Source: a virus. From it: DNA of 64,000 nt. The position numbers were made by a program, and so were the translations under genes. Below are positions 2,449 to 55,806 of this stretch, one piece after another. Numbering within the stretch: the stretch's first letter is position 1; every line of letters starts with the position of its first letter. The stretch is from positions 1 to 64,000 of the IMG/VR virus record IMGVR_UViG_3300035660_000001; one strand, written 5' to 3'. The notes below the pieces were generated by a model that had not been told where the DNA came from, did no database searches, and was given only the letters and a program-made list of their open reading frames with translations.

Positions 2449-3491
2449 TTCCCGGCAGACCCCCCTTCGAGAACAAACTGCGGATCGACTCGCCTTTTGG
2501 AATCGATGACGGCTATGGCCATGCCGCAGAGAAGATTGTCTTGTGGTTGGATCGGCTCGGGGTCGACATGTATGCTACGACGGGCTGGGGGCATACCCGA
2601 TTCGACGGCGTCCATCCCCGGGTCCAGCAGATTGCCCAGCGGGGACTTCGGGCGGAGACGACCTACGGGATCCGCATGTCGACTCCCCCGAGCTTCAACA
2701 TCTGCCCGGGGAGCGTTAAGATCGGGTTTTCGATGTGGGAGTTCATTCCCTTCCCGCAAGCCTGGGTCGCCGGGACGAACATGGTAGCCGCGAACTTCGT
2801 TCCCTGCGAGCAGAACAAGCAATTATGGCTTGAGGCCGGATGCACTCAGCCCATCTACGTCGTTCACCTGGGTGCGGACGTGGAGGTCTACCAGTATTAT
2901 GAGCGGCCGCCACGGGAAACCTTCACCTTCGTCATGGCCGGGACGCTCTCGGAGCGGAAGAATCCCAACATGGTCGTGATCGCCTTCCACGAGCTGTTCA
3001 AGGACATAGACGACGTCTACCTGTATGTGAAGTCCTCTCCTTATCTCGCTCATGGCTTCGCGTCGGACAAGGTCAAGGTCGTGAACGATCTCTACGCCGA
3101 GGATGCGATGGCTGAGATGTATAAGTCCTGCGACGTATTCGTCTACCCATCGCAGGGGGAGGGTTGGGGGATGTCTCCGTGCGAGGCGATGGCGACGGGT
3201 CTCCCTGCGATCGCCCCGGCGCACTCCGGCATGGCCGAATACATGACCGATGAGATCGGATACCCCATACGCTTTGAGCCTACCCGGAACCTGATCGGGT
3301 CCGGCCCGGAGCTCAGGGGACAGCAGTTCGGGTTCGCCGTGATCAAGATCGAAGATTTGAAGGAGCTCATGTGGCACTGCTACAAGCATCGGGATGAGGT
3401 TCGTGAGAAGGGGAAGAAGGCCGCACAGAGGATGCGAGAACGTTTTACCTGGGAACACACAGCAAGGAGGATTTTGGAGGTGCTGAGATGA
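2445..3491 (+). CDS. GT-B glycosyltransferase (GT4-like)
   Basis: RKNP motif and DVFVYPSQGEGWGMSPCEAMATGLP (EX7E). Confidence 0.92.
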   Translation: MIPGRPPFENKLRIDSPFGIDDGYGHAAEKIVLWLDRLGVDMYATTGWGHTRFDGVHPRVQQIAQRGLRAETTYGIRMSTPPSFNICPGSVKIGFSMWEFIPFPQAWVAGTNMVAANFVPCEQNKQLWLEAGCTQPIYVVHLGADVEVYQYYERPPRETFTFVMAGTLSERKNPNMVVIAFHELFKDIDDVYLYVKSSPYLAHGFASDKVKVVNDLYAEDAMAEMYKSCDVFVYPSQGEGWGMSPCEAMATGLPAIAPAHSGMAEYMTDEIGYPIRFEPTRNLIGSGPELRGQQFGFAVIKIEDLKELMWHCYKHRDEVREKGKKAAQRMRERFTWEHTARRILEVLR

Positions 3492-3865
3492 GTATGTTTC
3501 TCCTTCGGCTTCTGCCTCATGTAGCACGTCTGCATCCCAAGAACTGGCGGCCCGACAGGTGGCGGTATCCCCAGCTCTGGTATTGCGGCCCGAAGAGGTG
3601 GAAGAGAAACAAGCGGGGCGTGATCTTACGGAAGGCCAGACCGAGGCTGTTTCTCGAGTGGCTGTGCGGGGCGATGACGGGACACGAGTTGAGCAAGACG
3701 GAGTGGGGTTACGGGGGAGGGAAGTTTATAGACCGGAACTGCCGCTGGTGTGATAAGTTTGTTCAAGTTCCAAAGGATGAGGAGCCGACCAAGAGGGATC
3801 GTTTGCTGGATATTTACCTTAGTCATGGGGAAGGAGAGGAATGGAATACAAACCCGTCAACCTAG
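3488..3865 (+). CDS. hypothetical protein
   Basis: Coupled ORF with a CxxC motif. Confidence 0.55.
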   Translation: MSMFLLRLLPHVARLHPKNWRPDRWRYPQLWYCGPKRWKRNKRGVILRKARPRLFLEWLCGAMTGHELSKTEWGYGGGKFIDRNCRWCDKFVQVPKDEEPTKRDRLLDIYLSHGEGEEWNTNPST

Positions 3866-6468: not shown

Positions 6469-6470
6469 CC

Positions 6471-7559
6471 ATGATTCGGGTTGCGGAACCGTGCATGACC
6501 GGGAACGAGCAGGACTACGTCTGGGATTGTCTCAAGCAGATACGGAATCAAATTACGGTCGGCCCGTATGTCGCCCGGTTTGAGAAAGCCTTTGCGGAGT
6601 TCATCGGAACGAAGCATGCGGTGGCGACGATGAACGGCACGGTTGCCCTGCATCTGATCTTAAAAGCCTTGAGGGTCGGTCCAGGAGACGAAGTGATCGT
6701 TCCGAACCTGACCTACGTTGCCACAGCCAACGCCGTGACCTACTGCGGAGCGACGCCCGTCTTTGTCGACGTAGACGAGACATGGTGCATGGATCCCGGT
6801 AAAGTCAGAAGGGCTGTGACCGGGAGGACGAGAGTCATCCTGCCCGTCCACCTCTACGGACAGCCCGCCAACATGGATGAGCTCGAAAGGATTGCCCTCG
6901 AGAATAGAATTTTGGTCGTGGAGGATGCGGCGGAGTCGTTCGGGGCAACCTATCACGGGAAAAAGACTGGGAGCCTCGGCGTGGCCGGGACGTTCTCGTT
7001 CTTCGGGAACAAGACGATCACGACCGGGGAGGGCGGAATGATCACGACGGACAACGATGAGTTTGACCGAGAGATGAGGATTCTCCGGGGGCAGGGCGTG
7101 GATCCCGAACGGCGTTACTGGCATACCGTGATCGGATTTAACTACCGGATGACCGACCTTCAGGCCGCTATCGGGCTGGCGCAGTTAGAGCAGGCAGACT
7201 TCCACATCGGGAAGCGGAGGGGAGTGTTCAAGGCTTACTGGGATAACCTTGTCGGAGTCAGGGAGATAGAGTTCCAACCATGCCTTCCCAACACGGAGCA
7301 TGGCTACTGGATGGTCGTGGTCACATTTCCTTCGGGCTTCGACAGGGATCACATCGCCAAGAGGATGCTGGACTGCGGGGTAGAGACTCGCCCCGTGTTC
7401 CCCCCGATGGTCGATCTCCCGATGTATCACAGCGAGGTGCTGTATCCCATGTCTAAGTTTATCTCCCAGCAGGGTCTTTGCCTTCCGACTCATGCCAATC
7501 TCACCCGGAAGGACATCGATCTGGTCTGCGGATATTTGAGGGCTATCGTTCGTGAGTAA
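6471..7559 (+). CDS. DegT/DnrJ/EryC1/StrS PLP sugar aminotransferase (perosamine synthase-like)
   Basis: NGTVALHL, VEDAAES, FSFFGNKTITTGEGGM, GFNYRMTDLQAAIG. Confidence 0.95.
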   Translation: MIRVAEPCMTGNEQDYVWDCLKQIRNQITVGPYVARFEKAFAEFIGTKHAVATMNGTVALHLILKALRVGPGDEVIVPNLTYVATANAVTYCGATPVFVDVDETWCMDPGKVRRAVTGRTRVILPVHLYGQPANMDELERIALENRILVVEDAAESFGATYHGKKTGSLGVAGTFSFFGNKTITTGEGGMITTDNDEFDREMRILRGQGVDPERRYWHTVIGFNYRMTDLQAAIGLAQLEQADFHIGKRRGVFKAYWDNLVGVREIEFQPCLPNTEHGYWMVVVTFPSGFDRDHIAKRMLDCGVETRPVFPPMVDLPMYHSEVLYPMSKFISQQGLCLPTHANLTRKDIDLVCGYLRAIVRE

Positions 7560-8250
7560 TCCCGCCGTCGCCATGATGAGCCTGTGGCGTAACGACGCAG
7601 GCCGGAAGATCAGAGAGAGGGCGTACCATCTCCTCGAGAAGAGCTACCCTAACCTGCGGTACGTCTGGGTCATCGGGGACAGCCAGGATCGGACTGTCGA
7701 CCTGCTTCACGATATCTGCTGGAAACAGCACAAGGAAGTGCAGTTCGTTAAGGCGAATACGGGGATCGAAGGGGAGGATGTTCACATCCACAGGAAGCGG
7801 TTAAGCGTCTCGGCCAATTTTGGTTTCGCGGCGGTCCGGGCCGAGGACGAATACTGGATGATTCACGAAAGCGATCTGATCACCCATGTCGATATTGTGG
7901 AGCGGTTTCTGGCTACACAGAAGTGCCCGATCGGGGGATGGCCTACTTTGACTTCGGGAGGCCGAACGATCTTTTACGATACTTGGAGTTACCGGAAGGA
8001 CGGCGTGAAGTTCATCAACGATCCGCCCTACCACGCCTGCTACAGGCCGAACGAGCTCTTTGAGGTCGATAGCGTCGGGTCGTGCTGGATGTTCTACGCT
8101 CAGGACCTCCGTGCCGGTGTGAGATGCTTCAACGAGGGTTGTGTTGAGCTCTGCGGGCAATTTAAGAGGTTAGGCCGGACGATCTGGGTCGACCCGAGGA
8201 TCCCGGTTGTCCAGCCGGAAGATTTGTGGATTCCCGCCCCCCATGACTAA
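7552..8250 (+). CDS. GT-A fold glycosyltransferase-like protein
   Basis: GDSQDRT, HESD (DxD-like), EVDSVGSC, IWVDP; located in the sugar cluster. Confidence 0.65.
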   Translation: MSNPAVAMMSLWRNDAGRKIRERAYHLLEKSYPNLRYVWVIGDSQDRTVDLLHDICWKQHKEVQFVKANTGIEGEDVHIHRKRLSVSANFGFAAVRAEDEYWMIHESDLITHVDIVERFLATQKCPIGGWPTLTSGGRTIFYDTWSYRKDGVKFINDPPYHACYRPNELFEVDSVGSCWMFYAQDLRAGVRCFNEGCVELCGQFKRLGRTIWVDPRIPVVQPEDLWIPAPHD

Positions 8251-9115
8251 GCGAAGGGTTCTGTCGTTCTACCCGACCCACGACGTGATGATGAACTCGA
8301 TCGCCGGGAGTGTTCCGGATGTTCAGTTTGATCTGGCGAAGATTCGCGAGCTGGACTATCCCGCCCCGCTTTTATTAGCGAAGAACATCACCCTTCTGAA
8401 CGAGACCTGGAAAGAGGTCGACGAGAGCCGCTACGATCTGGTCATCTTCTGGTGGCAGATTTATCAGGTGGTCGGGGCAAGGAGATGGACCCTTCCCCGG
8501 ATAGCCTTAGTTCTCAACACCGGGGACCCGATTATTCCGGGTTGCGATGGGGTCGTCTACAATACGTGGCTTACCCAGGAGAGGAGCTCAACGCCCGGGA
8601 CGGTTATTCCGTTCTGCCTCAGCAGGAGCGTTCTCGGGGACTGGACCGGGGAGGACCCGAGGGCGTATTTTTGCAACCGGAAGTCCTTTTATGATAGGGC
8701 CGGGTCGGGATGGAATGTCCCCCTCTGGGAATCCTTCGTTAAGAACGTTCCCTTCTATGTTCCCGATACGTTCCAGTCTTGGAAAGAATATCTGGCCCAG
8801 CGGAAGAAGATGAGATGCTACGTCGAAATGTCGAATCGGGTAAATACCTGTGCCTTCTTCGAGGCCTTGATGATGGGACAGCCCACGATCGTTCCCGATC
8901 AAAGGGATTATAATCTGGTCATTAAGAGCGGCCAGAACGGGTTTGTTTATCGGAACACCAATGAGGCTGTGGTTATGGCCCGGGATTTGATATGGGATTT
9001 ATCGCTGGCCCGGAAGATCGGAGAGGCTGGGGCCCGGACGGCGCAGGAGCTCGCGGGCGACGATCTCAGGAATGGTTTGTGGGAGAGCATGTTTAGGGTG
9101 GCGGTAGAGACATAA
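8243..9115 (+). CDS. GT-B glycosyltransferase
   Basis: FFEALMMGQPTI...IKSGQNGF...ARKIGEAGAR. Confidence 0.8.
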   Translation: MTKRRVLSFYPTHDVMMNSIAGSVPDVQFDLAKIRELDYPAPLLLAKNITLLNETWKEVDESRYDLVIFWWQIYQVVGARRWTLPRIALVLNTGDPIIPGCDGVVYNTWLTQERSSTPGTVIPFCLSRSVLGDWTGEDPRAYFCNRKSFYDRAGSGWNVPLWESFVKNVPFYVPDTFQSWKEYLAQRKKMRCYVEMSNRVNTCAFFEALMMGQPTIVPDQRDYNLVIKSGQNGFVYRNTNEAVVMARDLIWDLSLARKIGEAGARTAQELAGDDLRNGLWESMFRVAVET

Positions 9116-9768
9116 TGTTTTACGGACAGTGGAGCCCGCCCGTAGATGAGGTTCTGTTCAGGAATTATTTCAGCGACAAGAAGGATGGCTTCTTTATTGA
9201 ATGCGGGGCGGGGGATGGTATCGGAGATAGCTGTTGCCTCTTCTTCGAACAGCAGGGATGGAGCGGCATTAACGTCGAAGCCTCGGACGTTAATTTCCAG
9301 CGCCTGGTCGCCAACCGTCCCCGGGCACACAACCTTCACATGGGCCTTGGAGACAGGGATCACTGGGCGAAGTTTTCTAAGGCCGTCAAGGGAGCCGACG
9401 CCGGGGGAGTGTTCGCATGGCATCCGAGACAGAAGCGGGAGTGTGCGGAGGCGGGCTACGCCTTCGTGGATATCGACGTTGAGATCATAACCTACCAGTC
9501 CCTGGTGGGTCACAAGGTCGATCTGTTCGTGCTCGACGTTGAGGGCTACGAGCTTCAGGTCATTAAGGGCATGACCGGGTCGGAGTTCCTGCCGGACGTT
9601 ATCTGTGTCGAGTATCCGTTTGTAACGCTGGGTTACCTGCAGGAGATGCTGTGCCCGAGGGGTTACCGATACGACTTCTTCTCGTTCAACAACGCCTTCT
9701 TCGCCAAGCCGGAGATCCCAGTGAGGCCGGAATGGTTCGGGCAAACGAAAACCCTGTTGGAGTATTAA
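9115..9768 (+). CDS. FkbM-family methyltransferase
   Basis: FFIECGAGDG, GWSGINVEA, LFVLDVEGYELQVIKG. Confidence 0.92.
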   Translation: MFYGQWSPPVDEVLFRNYFSDKKDGFFIECGAGDGIGDSCCLFFEQQGWSGINVEASDVNFQRLVANRPRAHNLHMGLGDRDHWAKFSKAVKGADAGGVFAWHPRQKRECAEAGYAFVDIDVEIITYQSLVGHKVDLFVLDVEGYELQVIKGMTGSEFLPDVICVEYPFVTLGYLQEMLCPRGYRYDFFSFNNAFFAKPEIPVRPEWFGQTKTLLEY

Positions 9769-9769
9769 T

Positions 9770-10270
9770 ATGAACGGCTTCGCCAAGATCGGGAAAGACT
9801 GCAAGATTTACAATGTCTTGATTCTCAGGCCGGAGATGGTCGAGCTCGGAGACGGTGTCCGGATCGACGACTGGGTGAAGATAGAGGGCGGGACGGGACT
9901 GAGGGTCGGGAACTACGTTCACATCGCCTCGTTTGCCAGCATCCTAGGTGGCGGTCGGACGTTGATCGGAAACTACGCAGGAATCGCCCAGGGCGCTCGG
10001 ATCATCACGGGGCGGGGTCATCCGTTCGCCGATCACTTCCCGCAGAAGCCGCCAGCCGGAGACCCCTATGATAACGAGCGATTGTTCGTTCAAATGCACG
10101 ACTACTCCTTTGTAGCGGCCAATGCCGTCATTCTACCCGGCACCGTTATCGGGGAGGGAGCTGTCATCGGAGCTGGGTCCGTTGCCTCTGGAATGATTAA
10201 ACCCTGGACGATCTATCTGGGATCTCCGGCCAAGCCAGTTAAACTACGAGGGAGGTTTGAGGCAAGATGA
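9770..10270 (+). CDS. hexapeptide-repeat (left-handed beta helix) acyltransferase
   Basis: [LIV]G-x4 repeats, ANAVILPGTVIGEGAVIGAGS, GSPAKPVK. Confidence 0.92.
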   Translation: MNGFAKIGKDCKIYNVLILRPEMVELGDGVRIDDWVKIEGGTGLRVGNYVHIASFASILGGGRTLIGNYAGIAQGARIITGRGHPFADHFPQKPPAGDPYDNERLFVQMHDYSFVAANAVILPGTVIGEGAVIGAGSVASGMIKPWTIYLGSPAKPVKLRGRFEAR

Positions 10271-10386
10271 GGATTATGTTTGTCGGAGAGAATACGTTCA
10301 TCGGAAGCGGGTTCGCCGCTCAGGGGTCTAAAATCCTGGAGGCCCTGTCGAAGAAACACGAAGTCCCCTTTACTTCTTTAGTTTAA
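10267..10386 (+). pseudogene. orphaned native N-terminus (39 codons) of the glycosyltransferase at 11040
   Basis: MRIMFVGENTFIGSGFAAQGSKILEALSKKHEV matches 31/33 aa of the 11040 N-terminus, then runs into AT-rich inserted DNA and stops. Confidence 0.88.
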
Positions 10387-10398
10387 ATATGTTACAAT
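10369..10398 (+). promoter_or_regulatory. putative sigma70 extended -10 promoter of the endonuclease element
   Basis: TTTACT...TGtTACAAT directly upstream of the structured leader. Confidence 0.5.
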
Positions 10399-10404
10399 TA
10401 TTAT

Positions 10405-10512
10405 GTCGCTCGGAGAGTAGGGTTTTACTATTGGGAGTTATAAGCCCCCGAATCCGCAGGTTGAAGCTGGTGGAAGTTAACCCTTCTCCTGAGCGACCGG
10501 ATGAGGGGGCTT
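10405..10512 (+). ncRNA. pseudoknotted structured RNA upstream of the HNH gene
   Basis: Stem GTCGCTC-GGAGA-AGGGTT / AACCCT-TCTCC-GAGCGAC; loop AAGCCCCC..ATCCG can pair with downstream CGGAT..GGGGGCTT. Confidence 0.55.
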
Positions 10513-10530
10513 TCAGTTTCGGGAGAAAAT

Positions 10531-11043
10531 ATGAAGATAATAGCTGGTTTGCCAGCGAGACAATACTTTCGGGAGTATTACCGTAATCATAAGAAGGGAA
10601 CTCTAAAATACAAGAGATATCTTCGGAGGCATCGTAAACAGAGGTTAGCTCAACAGAAAAAGCACTATCACGAAAATTTTGAGAGTGTTGCCGCTTATAG
10701 TAGGAATTATTACATAAATAATAGAGAACGTCTTTTAGAAAGGATTCGCATGTATAGAAGCGGACGCCACGGAAAGATGATGATGAGGGCAAACCACCTA
10801 AAGCGGAAGTATAATTTATCGCTCGAAGAATATAGAGCGATGGTTAAGAAGCTTAAGGGTCGGTGTCCTTCTTGTAAAAGAAAGATTAAGCTGTATGTAG
10901 ATCACGACCATAAAACCGGGAAGGTTCGTGGTCTTCTCTGTAGAAAGTGTAACCTCAGCATAGGTTATATTGGCGATGATTTAAAAGTTTTGAAGAGGCT
11001 CGTTAAATACCTTGAGAATTCCTTAAGGAGGACTGGAAGTTGA
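10531..11043 (+). CDS. endonuclease VII-type HNH homing endonuclease
   Basis: CPSC...LYVDHDHKTGKVRGLLCRKCNLSIG; basic Tyr/Arg-rich N-terminus; low GC. Confidence 0.93.
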   Translation: MKIIAGLPARQYFREYYRNHKKGTLKYKRYLRRHRKQRLAQQKKHYHENFESVAAYSRNYYINNRERLLERIRMYRSGRHGKMMMRANHLKRKYNLSLEEYRAMVKKLKGRCPSCKRKIKLYVDHDHKTGKVRGLLCRKCNLSIGYIGDDLKVLKRLVKYLENSLRRTGS

Positions 11044-12275
11044 AAATAATGTATGTGGGTGAAAACACGTTTATTGGCTCTGGTTTTGCGGCACAAGGGT
11101 CGAAGATTTTAGAGGCTCTCTCAAAAAAACACGAGGTACATGCTTGTCTGTGGAGCTACAACGGGACGGACCCGATCATTGGGGCGCCCTATAAGTGCTA
11201 TCCCCTCTCGATGATCGACTACTGGGGAGTGCAGTTAATCCCCCGTTACTTGGACAGGATACGTCCCGATGCGGTCTTCACCTACGGCGATCCGCACTTT
11301 ATGAACGAGCGCGGGCATAACATTCTCCATGAGGCGAAGATCCGGGAACTCCCTGTGGCCGCCTATCTCGCCATTGATTCTGAGAATCATACCCTCGAGG
11401 TAAAGCACGTTCTCGATCAGATCGACTACCCTGTGTTCTTTACGAACTGGGCGAGGGAGATTATCGCAGGGGAGTTTCCTGAGACTGCACCGAAGCTCCG
11501 GACGATCTACCACGGGGTCAAGCCGATGAAGGTGGTCGACGACGACAAGAAGCTCGAGTTCAAATCCCTTAACGGATTTCAGGGCCGGTATATCGTGGGG
11601 TCGGTATTCCGGAACTGCATACGTAAGCACCCTGAGCGTCTCATGCGGGCGTTCCGGAAGGTCTTGGAGCAGATCCCGAACGCCATGCTCCTGCTTCACA
11701 CCCAACCCGTGGACGTGGCGAGGGACTGCCTGAATATAGTCCAGCTCGCCGATTACATGGGGTTTAAGAAGTCGGAGCTCTTTATCTCGAAGGTTCCCAA
11801 TCCTACCGATACGCAGAGGATGGCCACGGAGGAGGAGCTCAACAAAATCTACGGGATGATGGACGTCCACGTCCTGACCTCGGGCCGGGAGGGATGGGGG
11901 CTTCCGTTGATCGAAGCGGCGATGGCAGGTCGGGCGTCGATAGGGACGAACTACGCCTCGATGACGGAAATCCTTGCGGACGATCGGGGATGGCTTGTGG
12001 ACTACTCCGACTGGTATCCCCTGGACTCCTCGCTTAACTTCAAGGACGTCCTGATTGATATCGACAAGCTCGCCGATACGATCGTGGAGGTCTGGCGGTA
12101 TCCGAAGGAGGCCGCGCTCAGGGCCCAGAGGCTCCGCCGCTGGACGCAGGAGCATTGCGAGTGGGGGAACATTCAGAAGCAGTGGGTTACCCTTTTCGAT
12201 GAGATCGAAAAGAAACTGCCGCCCAAAGCGGTGGTCGTTCCATCTCCCGAGAAGGTAAATCCCAAGACCTCTTGA
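11040..12275 (+). CDS. GT-B glycosyltransferase (GT4-like)
   Basis: RNCIRKH and DVHVLTSGREGWGLPLIEAAMAG. Confidence 0.92.
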   Translation: MKIMYVGENTFIGSGFAAQGSKILEALSKKHEVHACLWSYNGTDPIIGAPYKCYPLSMIDYWGVQLIPRYLDRIRPDAVFTYGDPHFMNERGHNILHEAKIRELPVAAYLAIDSENHTLEVKHVLDQIDYPVFFTNWAREIIAGEFPETAPKLRTIYHGVKPMKVVDDDKKLEFKSLNGFQGRYIVGSVFRNCIRKHPERLMRAFRKVLEQIPNAMLLLHTQPVDVARDCLNIVQLADYMGFKKSELFISKVPNPTDTQRMATEEELNKIYGMMDVHVLTSGREGWGLPLIEAAMAGRASIGTNYASMTEILADDRGWLVDYSDWYPLDSSLNFKDVLIDIDKLADTIVEVWRYPKEAALRAQRLRRWTQEHCEWGNIQKQWVTLFDEIEKKLPPKAVVVPSPEKVNPKTS

Positions 12276-12300
12276 CAATCAAGTTGAGAACCGTTATAAT
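12272..12300 (+). promoter_or_regulatory. consensus sigma70 promoter
   Basis: TTGACA-17 nt-TATAAT. Confidence 0.88.
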
Positions 12301-35444: not shown

Positions 35445-35903
35445 ATGGACTCTTTAGTCGACATCCTTCAGAGCACGATCCGGAGCCTCTCCTCCCGGGC
35501 GGAGGTCGATTGGGACATCATGGGGTCGAAGCCGAACTTCCTCGACTTCGTTAAGAAACTAATCCGCACGGACGACGTCGAGGACGGGTTGCGGAAGGCG
35601 CTCGAGCGGGACGGATGGAAGCACACCTTTGCCTTTCTGCACCTGCAGTCGAGGAAGCCCGGAGTGCCCCGCTGGTCTGTGAAGGTCAAGTCGGACTTCC
35701 GGAGGGACGGAAAGAAGTGGACGGGCATTCGGGAAGACCGGGGAGAGATGGACGCCCTGGACCGGACGATCGCCAAGTTCTTTAAGCGTTATCCTACCCT
35801 GCGGTGGGCGGGCCTCGGGGCCCCCGGCCAGGGTTATCCCGGGTACGTCGATACGCAATTCGGGAACTTTGAAACCACAGGCGACTTGGAGGTGGACGAA
35901 TGA
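35445..35903 (+). CDS. leader-bearing hypothetical protein
   Basis: MDSLVDILQSTIRSLSSR. Confidence 0.7.
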   Translation: MDSLVDILQSTIRSLSSRAEVDWDIMGSKPNFLDFVKKLIRTDDVEDGLRKALERDGWKHTFAFLHLQSRKPGVPRWSVKVKSDFRRDGKKWTGIREDRGEMDALDRTIAKFFKRYPTLRWAGLGAPGQGYPGYVDTQFGNFETTGDLEVDE

Positions 35904-35950
35904 TTTACGTTGAGAGTCCGAACGAGTGGGATGAATATTCTGGAAGCTGA
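35900..35950 (+). pseudogene. orphaned native N-terminus of the 36637 gene
   Basis: MIYVESPNEWD vs MIYIESPTEWD (9/11 aa); coupled to the upstream stop. Confidence 0.75.
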
Positions 35951-36650
35951 AAAGTTATATCTCCGGGATCTCTGGTCGATCAAGAAGATCGGTGACCATT
36001 TTGGCGTTGGTTATAAGGCCGCTCGGAATGCTCTATTGCGGGCGGGTGTTTCTCTTCGGAAACGAAATACATTGGGGCTTCATGAATTAAGTCGGATTAC
36101 CCGAGATAAGATACGGCAATCCTGCTTGGGAGACAAGAATCCCAATCATCGTAGTAGGCTCTCAGCTGAAAGGTGGGAACGTCTTCGTTCTATATTAAAT
36201 AGCATCCGTCCAAAGGAACGTTCTACTGAGGCAAGACAACATACAAGCCAAACTAGGATAGAGCGTGGTTTGGCTAAGGGCAACCGCAATCCCATGAGTA
36301 ATCCGGAGGCGATACGAAGGTGGGCGTTGTCAAACCGCCTTAGTCCTAATAGGGCGGAGCAAAGAATGAAGGTAATTCTCGATTCCGTAGCTCCCGGGGA
36401 CTATGCTTTCAATGTGGATGGAAGCGTCCTGATCATCGGCGGGAAGATTCCGGATTTCGTGAATATCAATGGACAAAAGAAGGTGGTCGAACTCTATGGG
36501 GATTTTTGGCATAAAGGAGAGAATCCCGATGACCGTAAATCATTGTTCCGGGGATTGGGTTATGATGCTTTAATTGTCTGGGAAAGTGAGCTCAAAAATC
36601 GGGAGTCCGTAATCCAGAAAGTAAAGGAGTTCCACTGTGATTTACATTGA
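35931..36650 (+). CDS. Vsr/DUF559-like (EDxHD-type) homing endonuclease with N-terminal DNA-binding modules
   Basis: PNRAEQ..IPDFV..VVELYGDFWH..GYDALIVWESEL; GDKNPN/GNRNPM NUMOD-like repeats; lower GC. Confidence 0.85.
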   Translation: MNILEAEKLYLRDLWSIKKIGDHFGVGYKAARNALLRAGVSLRKRNTLGLHELSRITRDKIRQSCLGDKNPNHRSRLSAERWERLRSILNSIRPKERSTEARQHTSQTRIERGLAKGNRNPMSNPEAIRRWALSNRLSPNRAEQRMKVILDSVAPGDYAFNVDGSVLIIGGKIPDFVNINGQKKVVELYGDFWHKGENPDDRKSLFRGLGYDALIVWESELKNRESVIQKVKEFHCDLH

Positions 36651-37080
36651 ATCACCTACAGAATGGGACGGAGACCGACCAGCAGTATTTTTGGCTGGCG
36701 GCATTACGGGATGTGTTGACTGGCAGAAGGAGGTCGTCGCCGGACTGGCGGATCTCGATATCGCCGTCCTGAATCCCCGGAGAGAGAATTTCCCGATCAG
36801 CGACCCGACCGCCGCCCGTGCCCAGATCGAGTGGGAGTTCCGCCACTTGAGGAAGGCTCAGGCGATTTCGTTTTGGTGCCCTGCGGAAACCGCCTGCCCG
36901 ATCGTGCTGTATGAACTTGGGTCGTGGATCAGGACGAGCAAGAAGCTCTTCGTGGGCGTCCATCCGGACTACAAGCGGAAGCAGGACGTAGAGATCCAGA
37001 CGCTTCTGGTCCGGCCCAAGCTTGCGATCGTCTACTCCGTGGGCGATCTGATCGCCCAGATCAAGGAGCACTTCGCCTGA
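36637..37080 (+). CDS. nucleoside 2-deoxyribosyltransferase-like protein
   Basis: VFLAGGITGC.DWQ..LNPRR..QIEWE..PIVLYELG. Confidence 0.88.
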   Translation: MIYIESPTEWDGDRPAVFLAGGITGCVDWQKEVVAGLADLDIAVLNPRRENFPISDPTAARAQIEWEFRHLRKAQAISFWCPAETACPIVLYELGSWIRTSKKLFVGVHPDYKRKQDVEIQTLLVRPKLAIVYSVGDLIAQIKEHFA

Positions 37081-47184: not shown

Positions 47185-47411
47185 AAAACCTACTGAGTGC
47201 AGTCGAAGCCCTGCAGTCCAAGGTGGACGAAGCTGATTTTTTAAGAAAGGCGCAGGATGCCTTCGACAATACCGAAGCGGCGGCGGGCGGGCTCATTGGC
47301 CTTCAGGACCATTTCAAGAGGGACAGTAGCGTGAAGAGGGAGCTGGAGAGGGACGTCGAAGAACTCGATCGGATCGCCAAGTTCATTACCAAAATCGCGG
47401 GGGTGAATTGA
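47181..47411 (+). CDS. putative internal head (cargo) protein
   Basis: Leader MKNLLSAVEALQS. Confidence 0.7.
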   Translation: MKNLLSAVEALQSKVDEADFLRKAQDAFDNTEAAAGGLIGLQDHFKRDSSVKRELERDVEELDRIAKFITKIAGVN

Positions 47412-47412
47412 G

Positions 47413-48291
47413 ATGGATAACTTGCTTCAAGCGGTCAAGAACGTAGCCTCCCAGGTGGGCCTGCAGTCTGCACGTGGTGGCGTAGACGATGACACCGCCC
47501 GGAGGTGGACGCATTCCTTCTACGCCCAGTTCGGCGGCATCACCTTCATAGTCATGAAGGACGAGAGCCCGTATGTGAAGATGGGCGATACCCTTACGGT
47601 CTCCACGGGCGGGGTTGTTCCGGAGGACATCACGGGGCCCAACAGCTACGTTTATCTTGAGCATGAGCTGGGGAGCGAAGAGCAGTGGGAGCAGTTTAAG
47701 ATCACGATCCCCGATCAGGAGAAATACTTCGCCCGCAAGACGGTCGGCAGGGATCAGTGGCAACTCCAATTCATAGCCGAGAACCTCAGTAAGGGAAAGT
47801 ATGTCATCGATGACGACCACCCCGACCGGATCAAACGGGAGTTCATCCAGTTTGTTGAGAGCATCGAAGAGCAGGACGACGATGACTTGGAGGACTCCCG
47901 GATCAGGCGTGGCCGGAGGCTGAACTCGGCCAGGGGTGACATTTGGCTGGACTCCGACGATGAGGTGAAGGCCCTCGGGAACTACGCTGAGGGATACGCC
48001 AAAGCCTTAACCGATCCGGAAATGGTCGATGCCATCAAGGATGCTTACGGCGAAGCCGTAGGCAAGCTTTCCGATGAGCTGATGCCTCCGTCGAAGGGTG
48101 ATATCGGATGGTCGGGTCTGGCCGACGTGTTCTACTATATCCTGAACCGTCAGACGGGAGGGGAGAATGGACAGCTCCGCAGGATCAAGGAGTTTCTCAA
48201 GGGTGAATTGGATGTCGCCAAGCAGATCGCCAAGAACCCGAGAAAAATGTTCGATGAAGCGGGCGGGATTATCAAGCCGAGGGGAGAATAG
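47413..48291 (+). CDS. putative two-domain cargo protein
   Basis: Leader MDNLLQAVKNVASQVGLQSARG; internal LNSARG. Confidence 0.72.
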   Translation: MDNLLQAVKNVASQVGLQSARGGVDDDTARRWTHSFYAQFGGITFIVMKDESPYVKMGDTLTVSTGGVVPEDITGPNSYVYLEHELGSEEQWEQFKITIPDQEKYFARKTVGRDQWQLQFIAENLSKGKYVIDDDHPDRIKREFIQFVESIEEQDDDDLEDSRIRRGRRLNSARGDIWLDSDDEVKALGNYAEGYAKALTDPEMVDAIKDAYGEAVGKLSDELMPPSKGDIGWSGLADVFYYILNRQTGGENGQLRRIKEFLKGELDVAKQIAKNPRKMFDEAGGIIKPRGE

Positions 48292-48294
48292 GTC

Positions 48295-48645
48295 GTGAAT
48301 AAGGAATTCAACGAAGCCTTCGGACGGTTGGAGCAGATTCTCTTCCCCGGAGTAGCCGCAGAGAAGAAGGGCGAGTTTCCTGGGGTGGACGTTACCGATC
48401 CGGTAGCTTCCGCTGTAGCCCCCGTCGAGACCAAGCAGGTCGTCCAGTCTGCCGGGGAGCCCTTGTTCATGTGCCAGGAGTGCGGGAAGAAGTTCTACAC
48501 GACAGCTTCTGCCGAGCGGGCGACGAATAACGGTTGCCCGAAGTGCGGGGGTGTGGATATTGACACCTACGTCAAGAGCTCGAAAATCGGGCCGATGAAC
48601 GATCTGGTGGCGTCTCTGCGGTCAATCGAAAGGAGCCTCAGATGA
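48295..48645 (+). CDS. zinc-ribbon protein in the cargo array
   Basis: VQSAG followed by CQEC..CPKC; ends in leader-like MNDLVASLRSIERSLR. Confidence 0.7.
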   Translation: MNKEFNEAFGRLEQILFPGVAAEKKGEFPGVDVTDPVASAVAPVETKQVVQSAGEPLFMCQECGKKFYTTASAERATNNGCPKCGGVDIDTYVKSSKIGPMNDLVASLRSIERSLR

Positions 48646-48911
48646 GAACCTTACTGGAAGCTATGCAGGCCGTCGAGACGGGACTAGTCTCCGCCCGGTC
48701 AACGGACACGTTGCGGGGAGACTTCGCCGTCCGGGCCGAGAAGTGCAAGGGCATCCTCGTCCAGGTCGACAAGCTCCTCGACCAGATTGAAAAGTATGAC
48801 CCCTACGGGGACATGATCGAGAACTTCGCCGATCCCGACGCGGACAGTAAGCGCGACCGGGTAACGACGAGGTTGATCGGCCAGATCAACGGAGACCTGG
48901 GACGTAAATGA
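48642..48911 (+). CDS. putative internal head (cargo) protein
   Basis: Leader MRTLLEAMQAVETGLVSAR. Confidence 0.72.
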   Translation: MRTLLEAMQAVETGLVSARSTDTLRGDFAVRAEKCKGILVQVDKLLDQIEKYDPYGDMIENFADPDADSKRDRVTTRLIGQINGDLGRK

Positions 48912-49264
48912 GAACCCTGCTGGAAGCAACCCGGGCGGTCGAGCGGGGTCTGGTGCTCTCGGCATTTCCGAGGCCCTCGGACTCGGAGCTACAGCGGAAG
49001 TGCGAGGAATATGCGAAGATGGCCGAACAGTTTCCAGAGTTTATGGACGAGGCTTACTTCGGGGAAGCCATCTTTAAATCCGAGCTGGGCAAGGATCACG
49101 ATGTGGCGATGGAGGTAGCGGAGATCTTCTGGTGGGCTCTCAGGGAAACGCCTCTAGGGAAGGGGCTCATGAGGAGAATAAACAGCCTTTCCAAGGAGAT
49201 GGCATCCTTCTGGCGGGATCTACAATCGAACGTCGCTAGCTGGCGGTCCAAGACAGGTCAATAA
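48908..49264 (+). CDS. putative internal head (cargo) protein
   Basis: Leader MRTLLEATRAVERGLVLSA. Confidence 0.72.
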   Translation: MRTLLEATRAVERGLVLSAFPRPSDSELQRKCEEYAKMAEQFPEFMDEAYFGEAIFKSELGKDHDVAMEVAEIFWWALRETPLGKGLMRRINSLSKEMASFWRDLQSNVASWRSKTGQ

Positions 49265-49272
49265 GGAGAATC

Positions 49273-50223
49273 ATGAATACCCTTTTGGAATCTTTGGACT
49301 CCCTCCGCAAGATGCTCGTCCTCTCGAGGTTTGAGGACGACCTGGAACCCGAAGAGGAAGATGTCTTCATCCAGGACACCCGGGGTGGCGGGACGGAAGC
49401 GAACCAGGGCGGGAAGACGATCGCTACCTTGGATGACGACTGGGACAAGTTCTACAAGGACATCCTGGGCTGGATGAATAAGAGCAAGTTCTGGCCGACC
49501 GTCTGGGTGGTCAGCGATCACGGGAACACGGAGGTCGACACCGACTTCATCACCTACTCGAGGAAGCACGGGGGGATGAGGGCCGCCGGGGTCGAAGGCA
49601 TCTACTCGAAGGTCGGGCCCACCGGCGACCTCGAGAGCCCTTCCTACCGGGAGGTCGACCATGAGTTCATGCGGATCGAAACCATGAGCATCCCAGCTCT
49701 CCGGACCCGTATCACGAAGATAGGGAAGCCGGAGAAGATGTATGCCTTTATCTACGCCCTCGAGAAGCAGGTCGACATCTACGGGGCAAATAGCCCGCAG
49801 GGTCAGGACTACAAAGAGCTGGCGGACTCAGCCCGGAACTACCTGAAGATCTGGGGCTACGACACGAGGGGCCGGGTCATGTCCGAGAAGCTCACCAACG
49901 CCGGGGAGGACCCGACGGCTACTCACAAGGAAGAGCTCTACACCCTGGCCGGGTTGATGACGGGGGCCGTCATGCCAGGCGATCTCCGGCAGGATATCCT
50001 CTCTGTGATCAAGGAGAAGGTGTGGCCGGAGATCGATGAGAAGGCCCGGATGATCAACAAGAGTAACCCGAAGGATTTGGCCCGGATAGCCGGAGACGCA
50101 TTCGAAGAGACGATGGGAGGAAGAACGTCGGCTTCCGGGGAGCTCGGCAACGCCCTTCGGTCCATCCAGGATGCCGTCGATGAAGTGTGGCATGCTCTCG
50201 CAAGAGAATGGGGGAAGAAGTGA
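49273..50223 (+). CDS. putative multi-domain cargo protein
   Basis: Leader MNTLLESLDSLRKMLVLSR; internal MRAAG and LTNAG. Confidence 0.72.
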   Translation: MNTLLESLDSLRKMLVLSRFEDDLEPEEEDVFIQDTRGGGTEANQGGKTIATLDDDWDKFYKDILGWMNKSKFWPTVWVVSDHGNTEVDTDFITYSRKHGGMRAAGVEGIYSKVGPTGDLESPSYREVDHEFMRIETMSIPALRTRITKIGKPEKMYAFIYALEKQVDIYGANSPQGQDYKELADSARNYLKIWGYDTRGRVMSEKLTNAGEDPTATHKEELYTLAGLMTGAVMPGDLRQDILSVIKEKVWPEIDEKARMINKSNPKDLARIAGDAFEETMGGRTSASGELGNALRSIQDAVDEVWHALAREWGKK

Positions 50224-50576
50224 TGGAGAATTTCAAAGAATCGGCTGACTGGCTGGGCGTTCTCTGCGGGGAGAGCGACGGGACGGAGATCGGGGACAAG
50301 CTGATGTCCGTCCGGGGTGGTGAGCCTGCGGCCTTTATGGACGACCAGGACCAGGAGAAGCTCGGAGAGACAATCAAGTGGGGCAAGGCCTCCGAGCAGT
50401 TCTTGGCGGAGCTGGCGAGCAACATCCGGTATGCCATAGCGTCCTACGATCCCAAGCACAAGTCGGAGATGGAGGATGTCGTGAGGCTTCTGCAGAAGGC
50501 CGCGACCGCTGGGGAGGAAATGTCGCATCAGGTCAAGAAGGCCGTGGAAATTCTCGAGAACAGGGACTGGGCTTAG
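50223..50576 (+). CDS. putative cargo protein, CGE-type leader
   Basis: MENFKESADWLGVLCGE. Confidence 0.65.
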   Translation: MENFKESADWLGVLCGESDGTEIGDKLMSVRGGEPAAFMDDQDQEKLGETIKWGKASEQFLAELASNIRYAIASYDPKHKSEMEDVVRLLQKAATAGEEMSHQVKKAVEILENRDWA

Positions 50577-50584
50577 GAGGGATC

Positions 50585-50887
50585 ATGAGAGATCAGGTGA
50601 TCAAAGCCCTGCAGGCGCTCGAGGCCACGATGAAGAAGGAGAGCAACATCATCGAATGGGTTTCCACTACCCTGCACAATGATGAGGCGTCATCGGATTC
50701 CGAGATGGCAGACCATTTCAAGAAAGAAGGTAAGGTCTCCAACGAGACGGCCTGGGATTTTGTCAGGCTCCGACAGAAGGCACTGAAGGGCCGCGATGTC
50801 ACTTCCGAGATCGCACAGATCCTCGAGAGGGGGGGGTTGGCCGATGGGGAGCTCTCGAGAGGGGAAGCCGTTGGAGAGTGGTCTTAG
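50585..50887 (+). CDS. putative cargo protein
   Basis: AGGAGG SD; MRDQVIKALQALEATM. Confidence 0.65.
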   Translation: MRDQVIKALQALEATMKKESNIIEWVSTTLHNDEASSDSEMADHFKKEGKVSNETAWDFVRLRQKALKGRDVTSEIAQILERGGLADGELSRGEAVGEWS

Positions 50888-51083
50888 GAACACGAAGGTT
50901 CTCATGAAGACCCTGATGGACGATCGGAGCAAGCCGAACCTGCAGTATGTGGAGGAGACCCTTTCAGACGGATCGAAGGCCTATAATATCATCGTCGGGG
51001 CTTTTGAATATGCCGCCAAAGACCGGGACGATGCGGATGCGGTCTACGAGGCGATCTACACCGCCGTGGGCGAGAAAGGATAG
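50844..51083 (+). CDS. hypothetical protein (separate gene or frameshifted continuation of 50585)
   Basis: PLESG...VEETLSDGSKAYNII; follows a G8 run. Confidence 0.5.
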   Translation: MGSSREGKPLESGLRNTKVLMKTLMDDRSKPNLQYVEETLSDGSKAYNIIVGAFEYAAKDRDDADAVYEAIYTAVGEKG

Positions 51084-51084
51084 C

Positions 51085-51459
51085 ATGAGCCAAGAGAATA
51101 AAGCCGTTTTAATCCTTGCCGAGCTTTGCGGAGAACCGATCGCGTCCGCAGGGCCCCGGGTCTTGGGCTACAAAGGCGTGGATCCCGCCGTCCTTCAGAA
51201 GACTGCCCTTCAGATAGCGAACGGGGGCGTTCTGGGTGATTCCCGGAAGCTCTTCGAGTATGTGCTGAAGTTCGTCAAGGATGCGGTCGGCCATTCCGGG
51301 GATGCCAAAGCCACTGCCGAGATCAATGACGTGCTCTTCCAGTACCTGCGGGACAATTCCGACTGCAAAGAGGGCATGGGATTGATCACGAATAAATTGC
51401 AGGAGGTCGTCCGTGAGATCGCAGAGAGCGACGACCCATTCGGTTTAAAGGGGACGTGA
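51085..51459 (+). CDS. putative cargo protein, CGE-type leader
   Basis: MSQENKAVLILAELCGEPIASAG. Confidence 0.7.
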   Translation: MSQENKAVLILAELCGEPIASAGPRVLGYKGVDPAVLQKTALQIANGGVLGDSRKLFEYVLKFVKDAVGHSGDAKATAEINDVLFQYLRDNSDCKEGMGLITNKLQEVVREIAESDDPFGLKGT

Positions 51460-52085
51460 GAGACTTGCTCGAAGCTGTTCGAACCCTATCCAGCGGGATC
51501 TTCCTGGGGCTCTATCTCGATCCCAACCGGGAGAAGGAGTTTCAGGACCTCGAGCCGTCTACGCAGTTTATGATGATGGAGCTCTTCCGAAGGGATCGGG
51601 TCTACGGGGACTACGATCGGAACGTGAAGCCGGACTTCCGGAGCCGCTTGTCGGACTACGGGATCCAATGCGAGGACGTCCTCTGGGTGAGCCCGAAGAT
51701 GAGCTGGAAGGATGAAGAGGGAGACAGCCCGGACTACTACTTCAGGCCCGAGCGCCTCGTTCTCAAGAACGCAGTGGTCAAGGACGTCAGGCTCTTTCTC
51801 AAGGAGGCCGGGGCGAATCCGAACGATCCAGAGGTCCAGAAAGCACTGAACGATCGTCGGTCTCCGGTGAGCATCTCATTCTCGACCCGGGGCTACGCCT
51901 GTGTTCCCCCGACGATCGGCGGGGCCGACCTGACGGAATTCATCCAGGGGGTCGTAGAGGAACTGCTCGGGACCCTGCAGGACGAGTACGGGGATATGAT
52001 TGCCAACAACGACGTGGCCGATATTCTGGTGGACGGGGATACCTGGAAACAATACGCCCGGCAGGTGGGGTTGAAGGCCGCATGA
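51456..52085 (+). CDS. putative internal head (cargo) protein
   Basis: Leader MRDLLEAVRTLSSG. Confidence 0.7.
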   Translation: MRDLLEAVRTLSSGIFLGLYLDPNREKEFQDLEPSTQFMMMELFRRDRVYGDYDRNVKPDFRSRLSDYGIQCEDVLWVSPKMSWKDEEGDSPDYYFRPERLVLKNAVVKDVRLFLKEAGANPNDPEVQKALNDRRSPVSISFSTRGYACVPPTIGGADLTEFIQGVVEELLGTLQDEYGDMIANNDVADILVDGDTWKQYARQVGLKAA

Positions 52086-52264
52086 AGGAATTATTGAACG
52101 CCATTACCGATCTCTCGCAGAATCTCAAGCTCGTGAACGTCTCCCCTCCGGGCTGGGGCGGGACCGTCCGGGCGATGAAGAAGCATAAGGACATCGACAA
52201 TCCCTTCGCCCTCGGCTGGTGGATGAAGAACCGGGGCGACAAACCGCACCACAAGGAGGACTGA
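52082..52264 (+). CDS. small putative cargo protein
   Basis: Leader MKELLNAITDL followed by SPPGWGGTVRAMKKH..IDNPFAL. Confidence 0.7.
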   Translation: MKELLNAITDLSQNLKLVNVSPPGWGGTVRAMKKHKDIDNPFALGWWMKNRGDKPHHKED

Positions 52265-52265
52265 C

Positions 52266-52550
52266 ATGAAAAAGGAAACTCGAGCCGTTCAGCTTCTGTC
52301 AGAACTTTGTGGCGAGGGTCAACCCTTGTCGAGCGTCCGGATGGGCAAGGTCGAGTTCGAAGCCTCGCCGGACAACAAGACCGTCGACATTATTTCCCGA
52401 TTTATCAAGGAACTCACCCAATACGGCTGGGTCATTGTAGATGGGGTCGTGCAGGATGCCGGAACGACGACCCTCGGTCATGATGGCACGAAGCGCGCCG
52501 TGCTGGGGATCACCATCAGCATTGTCAGGCCGAGCGATACCACGATTTAA
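52266..52550 (+). CDS. putative cargo protein, CGE-type leader
   Basis: MKKETRAVQLLSELCGE. Confidence 0.7.
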   Translation: MKKETRAVQLLSELCGEGQPLSSVRMGKVEFEASPDNKTVDIISRFIKELTQYGWVIVDGVVQDAGTTTLGHDGTKRAVLGITISIVRPSDTTI

Positions 52551-52564
52551 AGGAGGATAGTGAC

Positions 52565-53005
52565 ATGAATAGAGAAACTCGTGCCGTCCAGCTTCTGTCC
52601 TCGATGTGCGGGGAGCCGCTCCTTGACGCCCGGGGGACGTCGGTCTGGGATGTCAAGAACAAGCTCTCCACGAGGGACTTCCTGAAGGCTGGCCGTTACA
52701 TCTCGGGAGGGTTCGGATTTTGGGCCCATTCTGCTCTCGCTACGAACCCCGAGCTGGCCGATGCGTGGATCGAAGCCCTCCGGCAGAAGGGCTACTCCGA
52801 TCTCGAGATCGTTCTCTACGGGGACTTCAAGGACGGAAGGATGATCGGGGACGAGCTGGAACCCGACGACATGACCAAAGAGAAGGCTATCCAGATCATC
52901 AAGAAGCGGTCGATCAGCCCGAAGGAAGTTCGTCGGATCGCAGAGGGCGAGGGAACTTACCAGAACGCTCTCGAGGATCCCGACTTCACGAAGTTCTTCG
53001 TGTAG
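52565..53005 (+). CDS. putative cargo protein, CGE-type leader
   Basis: MNRETRAVQLLSSMCGEPLLDAR. Confidence 0.7.
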   Translation: MNRETRAVQLLSSMCGEPLLDARGTSVWDVKNKLSTRDFLKAGRYISGGFGFWAHSALATNPELADAWIEALRQKGYSDLEIVLYGDFKDGRMIGDELEPDDMTKEKAIQIIKKRSISPKEVRRIAEGEGTYQNALEDPDFTKFFV

Positions 53006-53008
53006 ACC

Positions 53009-53440
53009 ATGAGAGCCTTACTCGAATCCATCCGATCCCTTGCCGGGCTCTTCTCGGTAGGACAGGGTTCGGCTGGGAGAGTCAGGACGCCGGACGACCT
53101 CGGGGAGTCCCCGTTCTACGCCCGGCTGAAGGATACGCCACAGCGGGACAAGAAGCTGGCGACCGATCTCATGAAGATCGACGAGGACATCTGGCGGAGC
53201 AAGGGTTGGGATGACGCCTCGGGTCCCTGGGGGAACTGGGATGACTACAAAGAGAATGTCGAGGTTGCCGTCCGGAGGATCGGGATCCGACCGGGCACTC
53301 TCTCGGAGCGGGTGTGGGAGATCCTCGAGAACGAGAACTACCATTCGATCAACGGGGCCCTCGATGACCTCGCGATGTATAAGGTCAAGCACTACACTGA
53401 CGCCCAGATCAAGAAGCTGTTTCGGAGCAAATCCCAATGA
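53009..53440 (+). CDS. putative internal head (cargo) protein
   Basis: Leader MRALLESIRSLAGL..GSAG. Confidence 0.7.
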   Translation: MRALLESIRSLAGLFSVGQGSAGRVRTPDDLGESPFYARLKDTPQRDKKLATDLMKIDEDIWRSKGWDDASGPWGNWDDYKENVEVAVRRIGIRPGTLSERVWEILENENYHSINGALDDLAMYKVKHYTDAQIKKLFRSKSQ

Positions 53441-53449
53441 GGGGGTGCT

Positions 53450-53725
53450 ATGGACATAACACCGGAGGAAGCAAGGGTCGTTCAGAAGGTCGAGCATTAC
53501 CTTCGGGGTATCGACTATCACAACATCGTGGGGATGCTCTCCGGAGGGATTTCCAACGATCTCAGGTTCGCCGGGGTTGATCAGAAGGTGAGCGCGAAAT
53601 TATCCCATCGGTTGGTAGCACTTATAGACGTGCAGTACCTGGAAGGGACCCGGCAGAAGCTCCATGATCTGTCGAATAACCAGGCCCTGCTTCTGGACCT
53701 CGTTCGGGCCTCAATGACGGCATAG
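53450..53725 (+). CDS. hypothetical protein (no obvious leader)
   Basis: 91 aa ORF within the array. Confidence 0.6.
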   Translation: MDITPEEARVVQKVEHYLRGIDYHNIVGMLSGGISNDLRFAGVDQKVSAKLSHRLVALIDVQYLEGTRQKLHDLSNNQALLLDLVRASMTA

Positions 53726-53733
53726 GAGGACTT

Positions 53734-54051
53734 ATGAAGGAACTTCTCTTGGCGGTAACCTCGATTGATCAGATGGTTGGAGGGGCAAGGTTTCTCGGGT
53801 ATCCCGTGAAGGAGAAGCCGGTCCAGAGTGCCGTGGACGTTAACTCTATCTTGCGGTGGCTCGCCTCTCCCGACTCCGTGAAGATATGGATCGCCTCGGG
53901 GATCGGCTATCATCTCGAGGGCGTGGATGAGCTCCGTGGAAAGTCGAGACGGATCGGGGATCGGGTTGCAGAGAAGATTCCCCGTTCGGACATCCAGGCG
54001 ATTGCCGATGCCGTGAAGGACATACTACCCGATGTGATAGAAAGGGTGTAG
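53734..54051 (+). CDS. putative internal head (cargo) protein
   Basis: Leader MKELLLAVTSIDQMVGGAR; VQSA. Confidence 0.7.
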   Translation: MKELLLAVTSIDQMVGGARFLGYPVKEKPVQSAVDVNSILRWLASPDSVKIWIASGIGYHLEGVDELRGKSRRIGDRVAEKIPRSDIQAIADAVKDILPDVIERV

Positions 54052-54054
54052 AGG

Positions 54055-54672: not shown

Positions 54673-54681
54673 CCTCCGCAT

Positions 54682-55407: not shown

Positions 55408-55434
55408 CGTTTAACGCTAGAGGAGGAATCTAAA

Positions 55435-55779
55435 ATGACGTTCGCAGTGACGCAGGGTCAGATCAAAGAGCATTACGCCCCGGGCGGCGCGTATCAGGCC
55501 GTCCACACCGCCGAGGAGACGTTGGACTTCAGGCTCGGCGACCTCGTTCCGGCTGTCAAGGAGTACCTGGCGCCGGACGACTTGTCCGCCGTGGCAAACC
55601 TGGCCGCTCTCCTGGTGGCGATCGACGCCACCGTGACGGGCGCTCTCAAGACGTACCTGGACGCCGTCATCGCCGCTCAGATGCCGATCATGTTCTCGGG
55701 GCGGGACGGCTTCGCCGGGACGATGTCCTTCGTGATCGCCATTCTGATCATGTCGGGCTACTACCTCAACATCACCTAA
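55435..55779 (+). CDS. hypothetical protein (possibly structural)
   Basis: GAGGAGG SD; strongly GC3-biased codons. Confidence 0.7.
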   Translation: MTFAVTQGQIKEHYAPGGAYQAVHTAEETLDFRLGDLVPAVKEYLAPDDLSAVANLAALLVAIDATVTGALKTYLDAVIAAQMPIMFSGRDGFAGTMSFVIAILIMSGYYLNIT

Positions 55780-55806
55780 ACTGTTTCGGGGCGGGGGGTC
55801 TTCTTC

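Follow-up and report, generated by a model that had tools for sequence, protein, structure and literature searches.

How can a gene that is interrupted by an endonuclease gene still yield a complete enzyme when neither an intron nor an intein seems to remove the interruption? This question is raised by a glycosyltransferase gene in IMGVR_UViG_3300035660_000001, a complete 160-kb virus record with terminal repeats, of which the first 64 kb (64,000 nucleotides) are called the window here. The genome of the window is designated G000, that of a sister phage G001, and L-numbers refer to retrieved loci or contigs. The glycosyltransferase gene is interrupted by a cassette of about 775 bp (approximately 10367–11144) that comprises a promoter-like site, a structured leader, a nuclease gene, a ribosome-binding site, and re-spelled codons 1–35 of the gene. 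Sequence comparison makes it very probable that this cassette is an intron-less homing element, one that puts its own version in place of the start of the target gene.

A Gene Start Duplicated around an Endonuclease Gene

The start of the glycosyltransferase gene occurs twice. The open reading frame (ORF) at 10267–10386 (39 aa) repeats the N-terminus of the ORF at 11040–12275 (411 aa; Glycos_transf_1, PF00534, GT4-type), with 31 of 33 residues identical, start counted, versus 6 of 33 codons and 68 of 99 nt, the longest exact run being 8 nt; the residue and codon counts of the original prediction were thus reproduced. This repeat is far beyond chance and represents the strongest non-repetitive recoded peptide duplicate of this genome among the matches listed. 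The description of the two copies also held. The upstream copy, hereafter the stub, closes 6 codons beyond the repeat (TAA 10384–10386), is GC-rich, with a GC content at third codon positions (GC3) of 0.70, and is coupled to the preceding hexapeptide-repeat gene (9770–10270), whose stop its ATG overlaps. The downstream copy is AT-rich, with a GC3 of 0.42, equal to that of the nuclease ORF (0.42) and lower than that of the remaining gene (0.76), and its TTG start at 11040, with AAGGAGG (11025–11031) 8 nt upstream, overlaps the nuclease stop (11041–11043). The protein collection starts the glycosyltransferase gene at an internal ATG, giving 408 aa.

The 180-aa frame between both copies contains an Endonuclease_7 domain (PF02945, E 1e-22, residues 99–173), and its likely start is the ATG at 10531, with GGGAG upstream, rather than 10501. 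The predicted fold consists of long basic N-terminal helices followed by a C-terminal beta-beta-alpha-metal domain, and the best Foldseek matches are T4 EndoVII and Hpy99I, with a modest E of 4e-3. The residues of the EndoVII motif (C112, C115, D124, H125, H127, R133, C137, C140, and N141) are all present, and the same residues are essential in F-CphI and T4 EndoVII (PMC6083498); judged by these residues, the active site is intact.

An Uninterrupted Allele in a Sister Phage

One related phage genome was found (L001, also L002 and L003; 88% at the amino-acid level), and it carries a single, uninterrupted glycosyltransferase gene. At this site G001 has no nuclease gene; its two other EndoVII genes lie elsewhere. 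An element-free relative with both copies of the start had been named as the finding contrary to homing, and L001 has a single copy. Over the first 99 nt, L001 agrees with the stub at 84 positions, a level equal to that of the remaining gene (85%), and with the working start at 72. Of the synonymous codons, L001 shares 218/300 with the gene body, 17/29 with the stub, and 8/31 with the downstream copy, so that the downstream copy departs from the gene body (Fisher P 4e-7) and the stub shows no difference from it (P 0.13). At the protein level, however, L001 equals the downstream copy at 32/32 residues (K2, Y5), the stub differing at two (R2, F5). Thus, the expectation that an element-free relative would match the upstream copy was borne out for DNA and failed for protein.

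Because the L001 DNA is nearer to the stub than to the working copy, the stub is, on this comparison, the displaced native start, and the working start arrived with the nuclease. Codon differences from the empty allele reach codon 35 (11144), two past the stub end, and then fall to background. The two genomes show the cassette to be an insertion relative to the sister phage and the working start to have a history different from that of the rest of the gene. The splicing-free homing proposed in the original prediction is supported in this way, by an empty allele with a single copy whose DNA matches the stub better.

Upstream of the stub, 3.8 kb (6469–10266) have no homology between the sister phages. 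From 6469 to 11040 only the stub is homologous to the sister, and it is therefore the only nearby left-hand homology in this pair. Alternatively, given this non-homology, the layout could be left over from illegitimate recombination at the border of a variable glycosylation island, without any homing and with the nuclease as a passenger or a resolvase, since EndoVII motifs occur in resolvases too (PMC6083498). Nevertheless, the same order of stub, nuclease, and replacement is found at six other sites, mostly in collinear regions and with different nuclease families, and the nuclease has the F-CphI order, with a C-terminal catalytic domain, is AT-rich, and is missing from the sister at this site. 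Such a relic is regarded as quite improbable.

Seven Cassettes in Two Sister Phages

Whole-genome comparison of G000 and G001 revealed five further cassettes in G001 that are empty in G000; with the two in G000 that are empty in G001, the cassettes number seven in total (Table 1). Four of them are located at 5′ ends and three at 3′ ends of genes, and their inserts are EndoVII, other HNH, LAGLIDADG, and, in one case, unclassified, which makes at least three nuclease families. The stranded copy is nearer to the empty allele than the working copy in all seven, and amino-acid changes are present in five of the seven working pieces. This recurrence shows that the cassette design is routine in this phage lineage.

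The second cassette of G000 interrupts a nucleoside deoxyribosyltransferase-like gene (PF15891), and its stub matches the empty allele of G001 at 26/30 nt and its working copy at 21/30 nt; its inserted ORF had no Pfam or PHROG match. Among the cassettes of G001, the stub of the ThiF/E1-like gene matches G000 at 61/63 nt, its replacement at 46/63, and the gene body at about 90%, and for the phrog_1221 gene the stub matches at 59/60 nt and the replacement at 38/60. The latter cassette bears a second copy of the promoter and pseudoknot leader described below. In the cassette at the end of another GT4 gene (L052), the nuclease's last 12 codons and its stop are now supplied by the displaced native end, and a 91-aa passenger ORF follows. 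The host gene of L058 is a probable helicase according to our own reading of its sequence, which gave no Pfam match.

Outside this pair, the unrelated contig L044 has the same 5′ layout at 1939–2470, with an 18-codon stub, a 137-aa EndoVII, and a 232-aa gene; its replacement start agrees with the stub at 16/18 residues and 11/18 codons, and its nuclease is about 40% identical to that of the window. In addition, L017:2392–3150 holds an EndoVII gene between two diverged copies of a gene end (20/24 aa, 6 codons identical), which we take to be the psbA C-terminus; this may be a 3′ replacement at a cyanophage F-CphI site.

Table 1. Features of the glycosyltransferase-gene cassette and of the other cassettes in the two sister phages (plain coordinates refer to the window).
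Feature	Location	Strand	Basis or comparison
Stub, stranded native 5′ end (33 codons) of the glycosyltransferase gene	10267..10366	+	84/99 nt to L001
Sigma-70-like promoter: TTTACT, 18 nt, TACAAT, extended -10 TG	10369..10398	+	Sequence scan
Structured leader RNA, predicted pseudoknot	10405..10511	+	Folding z -2.9; homologous leader in G001
EndoVII-motif (F-CphI-type) endonuclease, 170 aa	10531..11043	+	PF02945, motif residues
Shine-Dalgarno-like site for the replacement start, within the nuclease 3′ end	11025..11031	+	Sequence
Re-spelled replacement of codons 1–35, cassette-borne	11040..11144	+	Codon comparison with L001
Complete chimeric GT4-type glycosyltransferase gene, 411 aa	11040..12275	+	PF00534, phrog_2170; 88% aa to L001
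Second G000 cassette: 11-codon stub, 239–240-aa putative nuclease (35931–36654), re-spelled start (36637)	35900..36669	+	Comparison with G001
EndoVII cassette, start of ThiF/E1-like gene beside JAB gene	L053:1237-1796 (G001 ~71070-71630)		Empty allele G000 141631
EndoVII cassette, 3′ end of another GT4 gene	L052:1269-2081 (G001 ~96400-97210)		Empty allele window 3450-3492
HNH cassette, start of phrog_1221 gene (function unknown)	L056:8412-9178 (G001 48412-49178)		Empty allele G000 116113-116172
HNH cassette, 3′ part of probable helicase gene	L058:2430-3225		Re-spelled working end and stranded native end
LAGLIDADG cassette, end of tail-sheath gene	L061:12645-13520		Re-spelled working end and stranded native end

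As regards the surroundings, the variable island at 6469–10266 contains a probable aminotransferase tail and glycosyltransferase-like, FkbM, and hexapeptide genes, and its counterpart in G001 (L001:954–4000) has a radical SAM gene and two methyltransferase genes instead; EndoVII cassettes lie near both ends of this sugar-modification island. A perfect sigma-70 consensus promoter is present at 12272–12300, directly after the glycosyltransferase stop. The duplicate scan also revealed short, alike N-termini recurring among small ORFs at about 47200–58300 (e.g., 48642 and 48908). Moreover, two in-frame insertions of G001 that are absent from G000 (L054:2647–3684 and L061:2613–3630) start with Cys and are intein-like, one of them with an HNH-like motif.

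Divergent Spelling of the Working Copies

The working copy and the stub share 5/29 synonymous codons (P 0.03–0.09), and in all seven cassettes the working and stranded copies agree in exact runs of no more than 5–8 nt. When the seven cases, all from one genome pair, are pooled, 23/107 synonymous codons are the same in the working copies and the empty alleles, versus 35.1 ± 4.1 expected by within-amino-acid permutation (P 0.002) and 32–38 under composition nulls (P 0.001–0.025). A control of 14 saturated pairs of distant homologs gave 424 shared codons observed versus 398 expected, that is, no deficit, and thus saturation alone does not explain the codon deficit of the cassettes. The pooled deficit points to selection for divergence.

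The replacement start could also be a foreign allele, acquired with the nuclease from a distant, AT-richer phage, whose spelling differences are neutral saturation. Its GC3, like that of the nuclease, a codon usage that fits the nuclease better than the genome, and the changed residues of the five working pieces agree with such an origin, which is the accepted reading for the fungal mORF gene hybrids (PMC3630166). However, the piece equals the empty allele at every residue, yet the next homolog (about 37–40% identical) has a clearly different N-terminus, and the pooled codon identity falls under the permutation expectation that the saturated controls reach. A foreign allele with neutral differences is possible, although clearly the less likely of the two. 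Foreign origin and selected recoding are partly compatible, as a foreign origin followed by filtering through selection is compatible with the data. A diversity-generating retroelement was rejected because the differences are not limited to adenines.

Proposed Mechanism

As an intron-less homing element, the cassette would act in mixed infections, where the nuclease would cut the uninterrupted gene at a site across codon 33/34. The left end would then pair with the stub, which would serve as the left homology arm, and the right end with the gene body past codon 35, so that repair would copy the whole cassette. The recipient's own start would become the new stub, and the enzyme would be made from the TTG start of the cassette, without splicing. 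The carrier would be resistant because the left junction splits the site and the right junction holds it in re-spelled form. Moreover, re-spelling would make the cut end pair on the far, upstream side of the nuclease gene and would limit deletion between the copies; with native-like spelling of the replacement, the cut end could leave out the nuclease gene, and recombination between the two copies could delete the cassette, which may be why the divergent spelling persists.

Some points weigh against this reading. The 8/31 codons shared by this cassette alone compare with about 10 expected (P 0.18–0.28 under uniform, AT-rich, or nuclease-usage nulls), so that the earlier claim of recoding as a selected trait does not follow from this locus and gains its support from the pooled set, where the 3′ cassette boundaries were set by eye. 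The independent empty alleles of the glycosyltransferase gene amount to only one. In addition, a flanking duplicate accompanies the nuclease in two distinct cases (L044 and L017) among about 30 loci of its relatives and was not found in five further relatives; the layout is not a fixed property of the nuclease family, since most relatives are without it.

Promoter, Leader RNA, and the Possibility of Splicing

Sigma-70-like sites numbered 3 versus 1.9 expected, which makes the one between stub and leader weak when taken alone, and a matching promoter-like site is present at the same place in the phrog_1221 cassette of G001 (48477–48506). Directly after the stub and the promoter site, the leader has a stable structure (z -2.9), with pseudoknot helices P1a (10405–10413/10489–10497), P1b (10419–10424/10479–10484), and P2 (10443–10449/10505–10511). 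A homologous leader occurs in the same G001 cassette (48472–49118, blastn E 2e-6), before a different HNH subfamily and at a different target gene. The leader pairs are kept at 22/22 in both copies, with five compensatory changes, four of them in one 6-bp helix, which is suggestive of a covarying pseudoknot, as modeled from the same two sequences that display the covariation.

The leader corresponds to no Rfam family, giving only chance-level matches far under the gathering scores. Searches for a third copy returned only the two known ones, whether with exact and gapped patterns (viral contigs and prokaryote genomes), with blastn (50,697 phages), or with a covariance model built from both sequences and applied to the own genome and about 650 kb of loci. 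In matches from Alphaproteobacteria-like genomes (L068, L075, L076, L079, and L080), the 3′ 20-mer of the leader lies in a short, intergenic, repeat-like hairpin without the upstream helices; at most, these hairpins are a lead to relatives of the leader. Readings of the leader as a hammerhead, HDV-like, or pistol ribozyme were rejected for mismatches in core or topology.

Passages of a review on T4 describe RNA structures that restrain the translation of homing nucleases in T4-like phages (PMC2988022), and for this reason a regulatory role of the leader seems most likely. Promoter and leader would then most likely control the expression of the nuclease and of the downstream enzyme, which is the weakest step of the argument. 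The leader is not needed for the cassette design because other cassettes are without it. It is kept, with compensatory changes, before two different nuclease subfamilies at two target genes, and it might be a new functional RNA that accompanies start-replacing cassettes and whose role goes beyond damping translation, for example as an RNA partner of the nuclease or through self-processing that frees the message of the dead stub; this is considered improbable.

A conserved structured RNA after the stub would also be expected if the insert were spliced from the RNA as a self-splicing intron, or skipped by the ribosome, with the stub joined to the gene body. The last bases of the stub are able to pair with 10503–10513 in the lowest-energy fold, and T4 gene 60 shows that bypass can arise beside a homing nuclease (PMC5009743). 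However, there is no Rfam intron or ribozyme match at a permissive threshold and only 164 non-coding bases lie, besides the nuclease ORF, between the stub and the long ORF; the sole in-register U/G junction fit for a group I intron, at codon 21, would leave 12 duplicated codons unexplained; and the known bypass spans 50 nt, versus 773 here. Moreover, the downstream copy comes with a ribosome-binding site and a start of its own and encodes the N-terminus found in the empty allele's protein, and there are leaderless cassettes of this design. Given the missing intron core, the lack of a suitable junction, the complete downstream start, and the leaderless versions, splicing or bypass is unlikely, to the point of being the least credible of the explanations considered for this sequence.

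Implications

Replacement of a gene end would be a third route, besides introns and inteins, for homing nucleases to reside inside phage genes. The contribution of this locus lies in the comparison with a sister genome, which gives seven reciprocal cases, in pooled evidence of re-spelling past chance, and in a pseudoknotted leader, a structured RNA motif without earlier description. The pooled codon deficit suggests that natural selection yields a recoded rescue copy like those that engineers build into gene drives, and it is a simple statistic applicable to many genomes. Moreover, the reciprocal empty alleles give predicted target sites for several new nucleases. Since the cassettes make gene ends chimeric, annotation and phylogeny can be misled.

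Comparison with Known Systems

The phage systems nearest to this element are homing nucleases that lie outside introns. The F-CphI family shares the C-terminal EndoVII domain, the zinc-binding Cys pairs, the DHDH motif, the Arg, and the Asn, and is likewise phage-encoded and outside an intron (PMC6083498). However, F-CphI of S-PM2 adjoins psbA and its self-cleavage is blocked by a group I intron ("collaborative homing"), whereas here a split and re-spelled site would confer resistance. The free-standing seg and mob genes of T4, mobA of T4 in gene 39/60, and mobE of Aeh1 in nrdA are alike in their intron-less phage homing, coupling to neighboring genes, and upstream RNA structures (PMC2988022, PMC5009743), and mobA and mobE also sit within a host gene. 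In these two cases, however, the host protein is split into two functional pieces, whereas here the upstream piece is discarded and replaced; the locus does not form genes in pieces, as the downstream ORF is complete and contains the upstream piece again, and a comparison of the end of T4 gp39 with the start of gp60 gave no significant duplicate (score 24).

No report of a replaced 5′ gene start in phages was found in the literature covered, which leaves most subscription journals outside, and the terms looked up led to no passage on 5′ replacement in Barth et al. 2023 (PMC10448857) and in the T4 review (PMC2988022). The homing strategy itself appears to be real, as originally predicted, but it is not unprecedented, as had been implied, since the WHO elements of yeast are a tested splicing-free precedent (PMC7282813). 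These elements cut FBA1 allele-specifically and, in the model put forward for them, exchange the 3′ end of this gene by using the stranded fragment as a homology arm (PMC7282813). In FBA1 of Torulaspora and Lachancea, as here, a splicing-free nuclease gene comes with a replacement gene end, a stranded native fragment, and a chimeric host gene. The WHO replacement end is nuclease-resistant, whereas here resistance would come from the split, re-spelled junction. WHO elements differ in acting at the 3′ end of a yeast chromosomal gene with an intein-like LAGLIDADG/zinc-finger protein, in contrast to the 5′ end of a phage gene and an EndoVII-type nuclease. Unlike WHO elements, the cassette must supply a start codon and a ribosome-binding site, and probably a promoter.

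The fungal mitochondrial mORF hybrids, described for atp6 of Allomyces macrogynus and for atp6, atp9, cox2, and nad3 of Glomus (PMC3630166), are also alike in having a duplicated gene end around a nuclease ORF and a stranded copy nearer to the element-free relative. They differ in being C-terminal and mitochondrial, with LAGLIDADG or GIY-YIG nucleases, and their divergence is read as horizontal transfer, whereas here the pooled codon sharing is under random. The cassette thus works like the WHO elements and mORFs and is not a member of their families, as it acts at a 5′ end, with an EndoVII nuclease, and in a virus. Replacement of a gene end is known at the 3′ ends of genes, in yeast WHO elements and fungal mORFs, and what is new here is the replacement of the start of a phage gene by an intron-less homing nuclease.

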